A DNA stretch of 32,000 nucleotides from Desulfobulbus propionicus DSM 2032 (lineage in GTDB: Bacteria > Desulfobacterota > Desulfobulbia > Desulfobulbales > Desulfobulbaceae). Under the pieces are notes generated by a model. The model was not told the DNA's origin. It saw only the letters and a list, made by a program, of their open reading frames with translations, and searched no databases. The stretch is from the NCBI RefSeq assembly GCF_000186885.1, contig NC_014972.1, forward strand, positions 1,410,001 through 1,442,000, given 5' to 3'. The translations under genes and the position numbers were made by a program. The first letter of the stretch is position 1. Each line of letters opens with the position of its first letter. Shown in pieces: positions 18,222 through 18,524 of the stretch.

Positions 18222-18524
18222 ATGCGCAACCAGCTTTTTCCACCTGTAAAAGCCGAAGTGTTCAATGATTCGAATACAGTCTGCTTCTGTTTCGGCTACA
18301 CCAAACAAGCCATTGAACAGGATTGCCGTGTTCACGGGGGGCGTTCGACAATTCTGGAACGGATTGTCCGGGAAAAACAAAAGGGAGGATGCCACTGCGC
18401 CCAAACCAATCCCAAGGGGCGGTGATGTCTGGCCGATGTCCGCCAGGTGGTGGACAAAATGGTGGGCAACATCAAAGATAACCACCTAGAGCCAGGTGAG
18501 AGTGTTCGTATGAAAAGACTCTGA
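18222..18524 (+). CDS. small Cys-rich protein with an in-frame TGA (18423-18425): candidate selenoprotein; the conventional reading ends at 18425
   Basis: The ATG at 18222 follows GAGGGAG. The sequence reads ..[48 protein letters not shown].. The frame stays open for 32 sense codons after the TGA, to TGA 18522-18524, which lies 16 nt before the atpD ATG. A hairpin (18429-18433 pairing with 18442-18446) has an 8-nt loop containing GU. Confidence 0.45.

Follow-up and report, generated by a model that had tools for sequence, protein, structure and literature searches.

An in-frame UGA upstream of atpD in Desulfobulbus propionicus probably encodes selenocysteine in a small iron-sulfur protein of the CopZ type

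Just upstream of atpD in Desulfobulbus propionicus DSM 2032, a small Cys-rich reading frame is interrupted by a TGA codon that is directly followed by a Cys codon, raising the question of whether this TGA ends a short gene or is read as selenocysteine (Sec) within a longer one. The locus lies in a stretch of 32,000 nt (contig NC_014972.1, positions 1,410,001 to 1,442,000 of the forward strand), which we call the window and to which its coordinates refer. The translated DNA agrees in every position with the layout given in a preliminary description of the sequence: the frame occupies 18222-18524 on the forward strand, with 67 codons open from the ATG at 18222, followed by TGA (18423-18425), TGT (18426-18428) and 31 further sense codons, up to a second TGA (18522-18524) that would be the true stop of a 100-codon ORF. 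The start codon is backed by an N terminus, M[RH]NQ[PL]F.P, that is kept in close relatives, and a Shine-Dalgarno-like GAGGGAG can be read from the DNA at 18205-18211 on the same strand, 10 nt 5′ of the ATG. On the downstream side, 16 nt separate the second TGA from the ATG of atpD (18541-19935, forward strand), which opens an N-type ATPase operon and is considered here as a neighbor only; its own Shine-Dalgarno GAGGAGAG (18527-18534, forward strand) is given for context. If translation ended at the first TGA, the gap would measure 115 nt. By chance, 32 codons would stay free of stops with a probability of about 0.2, from (61/64)^32, as had been estimated before (1 in 5). Because an open tail of 32 codons is insignificant in the window taken alone, the case needs comparison across loci. 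On the evidence given below, 18222-18524 is very probably a 100-codon selenoprotein gene in which UGA 68 specifies Sec by means of a SECIS hairpin at 18437-18456, and whose product carries a CopZ-type [2Fe-2S] domain with a likely role as metallochaperone or in electron transfer.

A homologue search with the conceptual protein, in which U was replaced by C, gave ten relatives, whose DNA we fetched and translated past the called stop. Eight of them are called as ending in ..NP[KQ]G[RW], i.e., at the TGA, and the two others are Cys forms, one of which reads ..NPRGRCCLSDVKVVVE.. at this place. Every TGA form goes on in frame with CL[APT][DEQ]VRQV[VA][DE], including loci that have no atpD downstream (L007, L009 and L010). 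A scan for the family with one genome per species yielded 73 loci, distributed over Desulfobulbus, other Desulfobacterota, Desulfuromusa/Pelovirga and Synergistaceae; isolate genomes of Nitratidesulfovibrio, Solidesulfovibrio and Desulfovibrio have the locus. Both Desulfobacterota and Synergistaceae are selenoprotein-rich lineages (PMC5029168). Among 78 distinct loci from Desulfobacterota and Synergistaceae, the codon is TGA in 76 and a Cys codon (TGT or TGC) in 2; the codon right after it encodes Cys in all 78 distinct sequences, and no stop was found within 13 codons past the TGA in any of the 78. The downstream consensus of these loci is C-L-x-D-V-R-[RQ]-V-[VA]-[DN], which corresponds in the window to C69-L-A-D-V-R-Q-V-V-D78 (18426-18455, forward strand), where C69 is invariant and a predicted helix starts. 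Over these ten codons, the entropy is 0.45, 0.44 and 1.01 at codon positions 1, 2 and 3 (78 loci), the variation being mainly at the third position, and the 20 codons before the TGA are less conserved than the ten after it (0.84, 0.83 and 1.53).

The rest of the reading frame, at 18456-18521 on the forward strand, is a variable C-terminal tail that is conserved within the Desulfobulbus clade only. Its length past the UGA ranges from 13 to 66 codons across loci, and it is dispensable in some relatives, since L002 and L007 stop 18 codons past the UGA. In L007 this stop is a TAG, and the tail sequence beyond it is still recognizable. In L002 (1296-1556), the first cluster motif reads CFRFGY, with an Arg substituted for the second Cys of the cluster, a TAA stands 18 codons past the UGA and the frame is broken downstream, so that L002 may be a decaying copy.

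The identity of the residue at the TGA is indicated by homologues that lack it. The Cys homologues P0007, P0011, P0015, P0018 and P0019, together with the long zf_CopZ forms, read ..NP-x-G-R-C-C-L-x-D-V.., and because they have GRCC there, the TGA stands for the first Cys of a CC pair. The central proposal of the preliminary description, that the TGA is a Sec codon standing where the CopZ N-terminal domain has the first Cys of its ..NP-x-G-x-C-C motif, is thus borne out by the Cys homologues and by the TGA in 76 of the 78 loci; where it had suggested looking for homologues that align a Cys to the TGA and extend through the tail, we found such Cys forms as well as in-frame conservation in all loci. 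UGA 68 (18423-18425, forward strand) is part of the motif G66-R67-U68-C69, of the form GxUC. Upstream, C57 and C59 are invariant in the 78 loci, while in an 11-sequence alignment C21 is invariant and C23 nearly so, L002 having Arg at position 23; the codons of the four residues start at 18282 (C21), 18288 (C23), 18390 (C57) and 18396 (C59) on the forward strand. From these sequence comparisons it is almost certain that this TGA specifies selenocysteine in a small iron-sulfur protein of the CopZ type.

Gene callers and the NCBI annotation nevertheless present the homologues as hypothetical proteins of 51-69 aa that end at the TGA, and the codon is followed by a stable hairpin, both of which would suit a genuine stop, a 67-aa product and a downstream non-coding RNA element such as an atpD leader or attenuator. 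We consider this very unlikely, because the downstream conservation is in frame and at the amino acid level, with third-position variation, and because it persists where atpD is absent downstream, holding in unrelated genomic contexts (L007, L009, L010 and many scan loci). Moreover, the homologues with a Cys codon are translated straight through the matching peptide, and C69, which is invariant and corresponds to the final Cys of the cluster motif, would be missing from a product of 67 aa.

The TGA could also be read as Trp, Cys or Gly, through an alternative code or near-cognate suppression. Among the best 120 database proteins of a profile search, 86 end at the TGA codon, 20 have CC and 13 show W, and it is these 13 that would favor a Trp reading; yet the W stems from the choice of code 4 or 25 by the gene caller, and W entries also place W at both Cys sites of the HMA motif GMTCxxC, with TGA in the DNA at all three positions. 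In addition, the homologous residue is Cys and never Trp, and the codon is followed by a SECIS-type hairpin under RNA-level selection. In the window itself, TGA is the ordinary stop of 14 of the 29 genes, so it is not a sense codon genome-wide and the standard code applies. Taken together, these observations make decoding as one of the common amino acids highly improbable.

The entries with HMA sites belong to a group of relatives in which an N-terminal HMA domain is joined to a CopZ-NT-like domain, with three in-frame TGAs (GMT-U-xx-U ... NPKGR-U-C), all three of which are rendered as Trp in database entries. Such fusions were found at the metagenome loci L088 (662-1198), L089 (792-1328), L090, L091, L093, L094, L100 and L103-L105, and as the proteins P0013, P0020 and P0023-P0026. 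The match of their HMA part to NF041115, "metal-binding (seleno)protein", falls short of the cutoff of that model.

Given that TGT or TGC becomes TGA by a one-base change, a pseudogene or a sequencing error, with a Cys codon mutated or misread, might also be envisaged, and the L002 relative, with C23 replaced by Arg and a shortened tail, does look partly degraded. However, the TGA is shared by 76 of 78 independent assemblies, including the Nitratidesulfovibrio, Solidesulfovibrio and Desulfovibrio isolates, and the sequence both before and after it shows purifying selection. This explanation is effectively refuted by the comparison and has next to no chance of being right.

The candidate for a bacterial SECIS element downstream of the UGA is a conserved hairpin, U-GUCCGCC-AGGU-GGUGGAC-A, at 18437-18456 on the forward strand, identified by folding, covariation and synonymous resampling. 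Its stem of 8 bp (18437-18444/18449-18456) closes an apical AGGU loop (18445-18448), which lies 19 nt from the UGA. The hairpin is the minimum-free-energy fold, at -13.4 kcal/mol with a z of -4.6, and none of 200 shuffles was as good. Across 38 distinct sequences, the core pairs are formed essentially always; one pair changes in a fully compensatory way (CG in 31, UA in 7, unpaired in none), and a second is GU in 25, GC in 10 and AU in 3, again never unpaired. The switch from CG to UA couples a synonymous change in a Val codon (GTC>GTT) with a non-synonymous change of Asp to Asn (GAC>AAC). The covariation score was equaled by just 3 of 500 shuffles, though the shuffle statistics overstate independence because the loci are phylogenetically related. 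Within the stem, third codon positions hardly vary (entropy 0.29 and 0.10), whereas a Val codon at the loop, in the loop-closing position, is free to do so (1.42). When synonymous codons were resampled with the peptide kept, the mean was -3.65 kcal/mol as against an observed mean of -10.2 kcal/mol, with 86% of loci in the top 5%. These results show that the hairpin at 18437-18456 is under RNA-level selection. In the published bSECIS model (PMC13188914), the loop has 3-9 nt, with a G at loop position 1 or 2 and then a G or U, the stem 4-16 bp, the spacing from the UGA is 16-37 nt and the minimum free energy is at most -7.5 kcal/mol; the hairpin falls within this model on all four counts, with AGGU, 8 bp, 19 nt and -13.4 kcal/mol.

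This is not the structure that had been put forward at the outset. The complementarity between CUGGC (18429-18433) and GCCAG (18442-18446) noted there is literally present in the DNA, and the expectation that folding would reveal a conserved bSECIS-like structure downstream of the UGA holds, but the structure found is a different one: the hairpin first proposed, at 18426-18433/18442-18449, is not conserved as a SECIS, and the overlapping one at 18437-18456 is. In a 40-sequence alignment, the central pairs of the former (9-22 and 10-21) fail to form in 13-19 of 38 sequences, its covariation is not above that of shuffles, and its loop starts 8 nt past the UGA, where the minimum is 16. A search of Rfam around the site returned nothing at gathering thresholds and two chance-level matches only.

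Among five short Cys forms, the hairpin at 18437-18456 is kept in four and lost in one, and because four of five keep it, it is not exclusive to Sec forms. Its free energy in the four that keep it (L011 724, L085 1440, L086 1654 and L087 508) ranges from -9.6 to -15.3 kcal/mol, and in the fifth (L042 3151) the hairpin is gone (-1.8 kcal/mol). The simplest explanation for hairpins in Cys forms would be that they are fossil SECIS elements left after a recent Sec-to-Cys conversion.

To which domain family the product belongs was addressed with profile and structure searches. Pfam gave zero hits on the window protein with U replaced by C, including for PF04324, which is found in some relatives. 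The NCBIfam model NF047645 (CopZ_Nterm_CC) matches at E=1.7e-13 over profile positions 76-137 of 138, including the CxC...C...NPxGxCC motif, with a score of 51 bits that lies below the cutoff of 100 and leaves the zinc-ribbon half unmatched, and thus short of full membership. NF045877 (CopZ_Nterm_CU) matches weakly, at 18.3 bits against a cutoff of 190, which together with the order U-C places the protein outside that model. The top sequence match in the PDB is 2HU9 (Sazinsky et al. 2007, PMID 17609202), the N-terminal domain of Archaeoglobus fulgidus CopZ, which is weak (E 0.09-0.18) and was not improved by a profile search against the PDB over the single-sequence search; its C75, C77, C109, C118 and C119 align to C21, C23, C59, U68 and C69 of the window protein. 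The relation to the Cys pattern of the CopZ N-terminal [2Fe-2S] domain that had been proposed at the outset thus finds support in the NF047645 match and in the 2HU9 alignment. C21, C23, C59 and C69 are conserved in the window family, which is without the zinc-ribbon half (PF18423) of the long forms and adds the invariant C57, giving CxC.

As a stand-in for the window protein, we used an AlphaFold2 model of the Cys homologue P0007 (pLDDT 84), which shows a small helical domain with a helix directly after the CC pair (residues 56-67). The peptide after the TGA, which had been thought to look like an amphipathic helix, is conserved and is helical in this model of the homologue. The best fold match of the P0007 model in the PDB is Bfd, which is weak, with a TM score of 0.65 normalized to the target and a Foldseek E of about 1. 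The product is predicted to consist of a single BFD-like [2Fe-2S] domain, standing alone and of the type found at the N terminus of CopZ; the NF047645 match and the 2HU9 alignment point to this domain in the protein encoded by codons 1-67 (18222-18422, forward strand).

The locus had been presented as a candidate new selenoprotein, a claim that does not stand. Two reviews list a selenoprotein family "(2Fe-2S)-binding protein (CopZ family) form 1, motif GxUC", and because the G-R-U-C of the window (G66-R67-U68-C69) is the GxUC listed for the CopZ family, the family is already catalogued and the gene, to judge by its motif, the NF047645 match and the 2HU9 alignment, is a member of it, of a commonly mis-annotated kind. 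Form 1 is of the same domain family, has the same Sec motif and is likewise bacterial and computationally defined; the likeness to its exemplar, WP_245779778.1, is one of listed motif and domain. The 2008 GOS paper, which the reviews cite for the family, does not name it in its main text or supplements, neither Peng 2016 nor the deep-Sep paper mentions it, and we found no experimental work on any family member in the literature.

Several described proteins are close to the window protein without being identical to it in layout. NF047645, a putative iron-sulfur cluster-binding metallochaperone, shares its C-terminal half with the window protein, which differs in having no N-terminal zinc ribbon (PF18423), Sec for the first Cys of the pair and the extra C57. 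NF045877, the Csac_0668 family 2Fe-2S (seleno)protein or "form 2", has a homologous domain with Sec in the same CC pair, but Sec takes the second place of the pair there (C-U) and the first in the window protein (U-C). The Cys motifs of the A. fulgidus CopZ N-terminal domain (2HU9) align with those of the window protein, although 2HU9 is all-Cys and includes a Zn(Cys)4 subdomain with no counterpart in the window protein; the HMA domain is C-terminal in A. fulgidus CopZ and N-terminal in the bacterial fusions found here. Bfd (4E6K and 6E6R; PF04324, Fer2_BFD), the best fold match of the P0007 model, is a small helical [2Fe-2S] protein with CxC...C..C ligands, which differs from the window protein in the spacing of the last two ligands and in not being a selenoprotein.

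For annotation, the consequence is that among the best 120 relatives 86 stop short at the UGA and 13 wrongly show Trp there. The nearest relative is annotated by NCBI as a 69-aa hypothetical protein, and no NCBIfam model reaches its cutoff on the short form. In this subfamily the predicted Sec form is the norm and not the exception, and a model made for it could be built starting from the 76 Sec loci, their defined SECIS and the few Cys forms.

The genomic surroundings point to metals and metalloids. The window is a metal(loid)-resistance island, with segments at 4288-8201, 10322-18162 and 25174-31259, that encodes two ArsR, three ArsP_1 permeases, an ArsM-like methyltransferase, a radical-SAM/SPASM protein and ArsA, as well as two LMW phosphatase-type reductases, Thioredoxin_3, thioredoxin, DsbD, DGC, Usp, a CDF transporter, and four rhodanese genes, among them those for a triple-rhodanese protein and two single rhodaneses. 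None of the rhodanese or thioredoxin genes in the window has an in-frame TGA; the other TGA-interrupted ORFs of the window all lie across real genes read in a different frame, with no convincing selenoprotein gene among them, and ARAGORN found no tRNA in the 32 kb. Across the family, an ArsP_1 permease is the commonest same-strand neighbor immediately upstream (12 of 48 loci), and MerR, MerC, TauE, FmdE, ArsM-like and LMWPc proteins recur as neighbors. The domain is thereby tied to heavy-metal and metalloid handling through fusion and neighborhood.

Downstream, the N-type ATPase operon atpD-C-Q-R-B-E-F-A-G runs from 18541 to about 25108, AtpQ/ATPase_gene1 and AtpR being assigned by synteny with L001 (Pfam architecture). 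The arrangement of selenoprotein gene and atpD is kept in the Desulfobulbus relatives L001, L002, L003, L006 and L013, so the adjacency to which the preliminary description drew attention is specific to the Desulfobulbus clade and is not a family feature. A functional link to atpD as a family trait was considered and rejected, the downstream neighbors being diverse. A weaker suggestion, for the Desulfobulbus clade only, is that Sec decoding could bring ribosomes within 16 nt of atpD and thereby couple translation of the N-ATPase to selenium supply.

The following mechanism would fit these data. Translation would give a product of about 11 kDa in which codon 68, UGA, is read as selenocysteine, SelB carrying Sec-tRNA(Sec) being recruited by the SECIS hairpin within the ORF. 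By homology with the A. fulgidus CopZ N-terminal domain, C21, C23, C59 and either U68 or C69 would hold the cluster. The selenol would then sit at or beside the cluster, with the subfamily-specific C57 as a possible partner. In A. fulgidus CopZ, a redox-active [2Fe-2S] domain attached to an HMA copper chaperone reportedly can reduce Cu(II). Because of the nearby permeases and resistance genes, the UxxU HMA fusions and this Cu(II) reduction, the protein may serve thiophilic metal(loid)s as a redox-active metallochaperone or as a module for electron transfer, and by analogy a role in thiophilic metal or metalloid handling is likely. A more specific proposal, which is speculative and rather unlikely to hold in full, is that the U68 selenol lies beside or ligates the [2Fe-2S] cluster and forms, with C57 or C69, a cluster-coupled Se/S site that binds and reduces As(III) or an organoarsenical, Hg or Cu, the cargo being passed to ArsP-type permeases and HMA partners. 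If true, this would be a selenium-dependent Fe-S metallochaperone or reductase, a type never characterized biochemically.

Two further reading frames in the window were noted. A 440-aa ORF on the reverse strand (9229-10551), without a Pfam match, contains a thioredoxin-like FSSTCSHCQ motif and a number of hydrophobic stretches; translation probably begins further downstream, because its 5′ part overlaps ArsR (10322-10657) on the other strand. On the forward strand, 8567-8971 encodes a small predicted secreted protein with a signal-peptide-like N terminus and a Gly/Met-rich repeat, GRGGMAMGRGMGRGMGRGPGWWG, which could be a periplasmic metal-binding protein.
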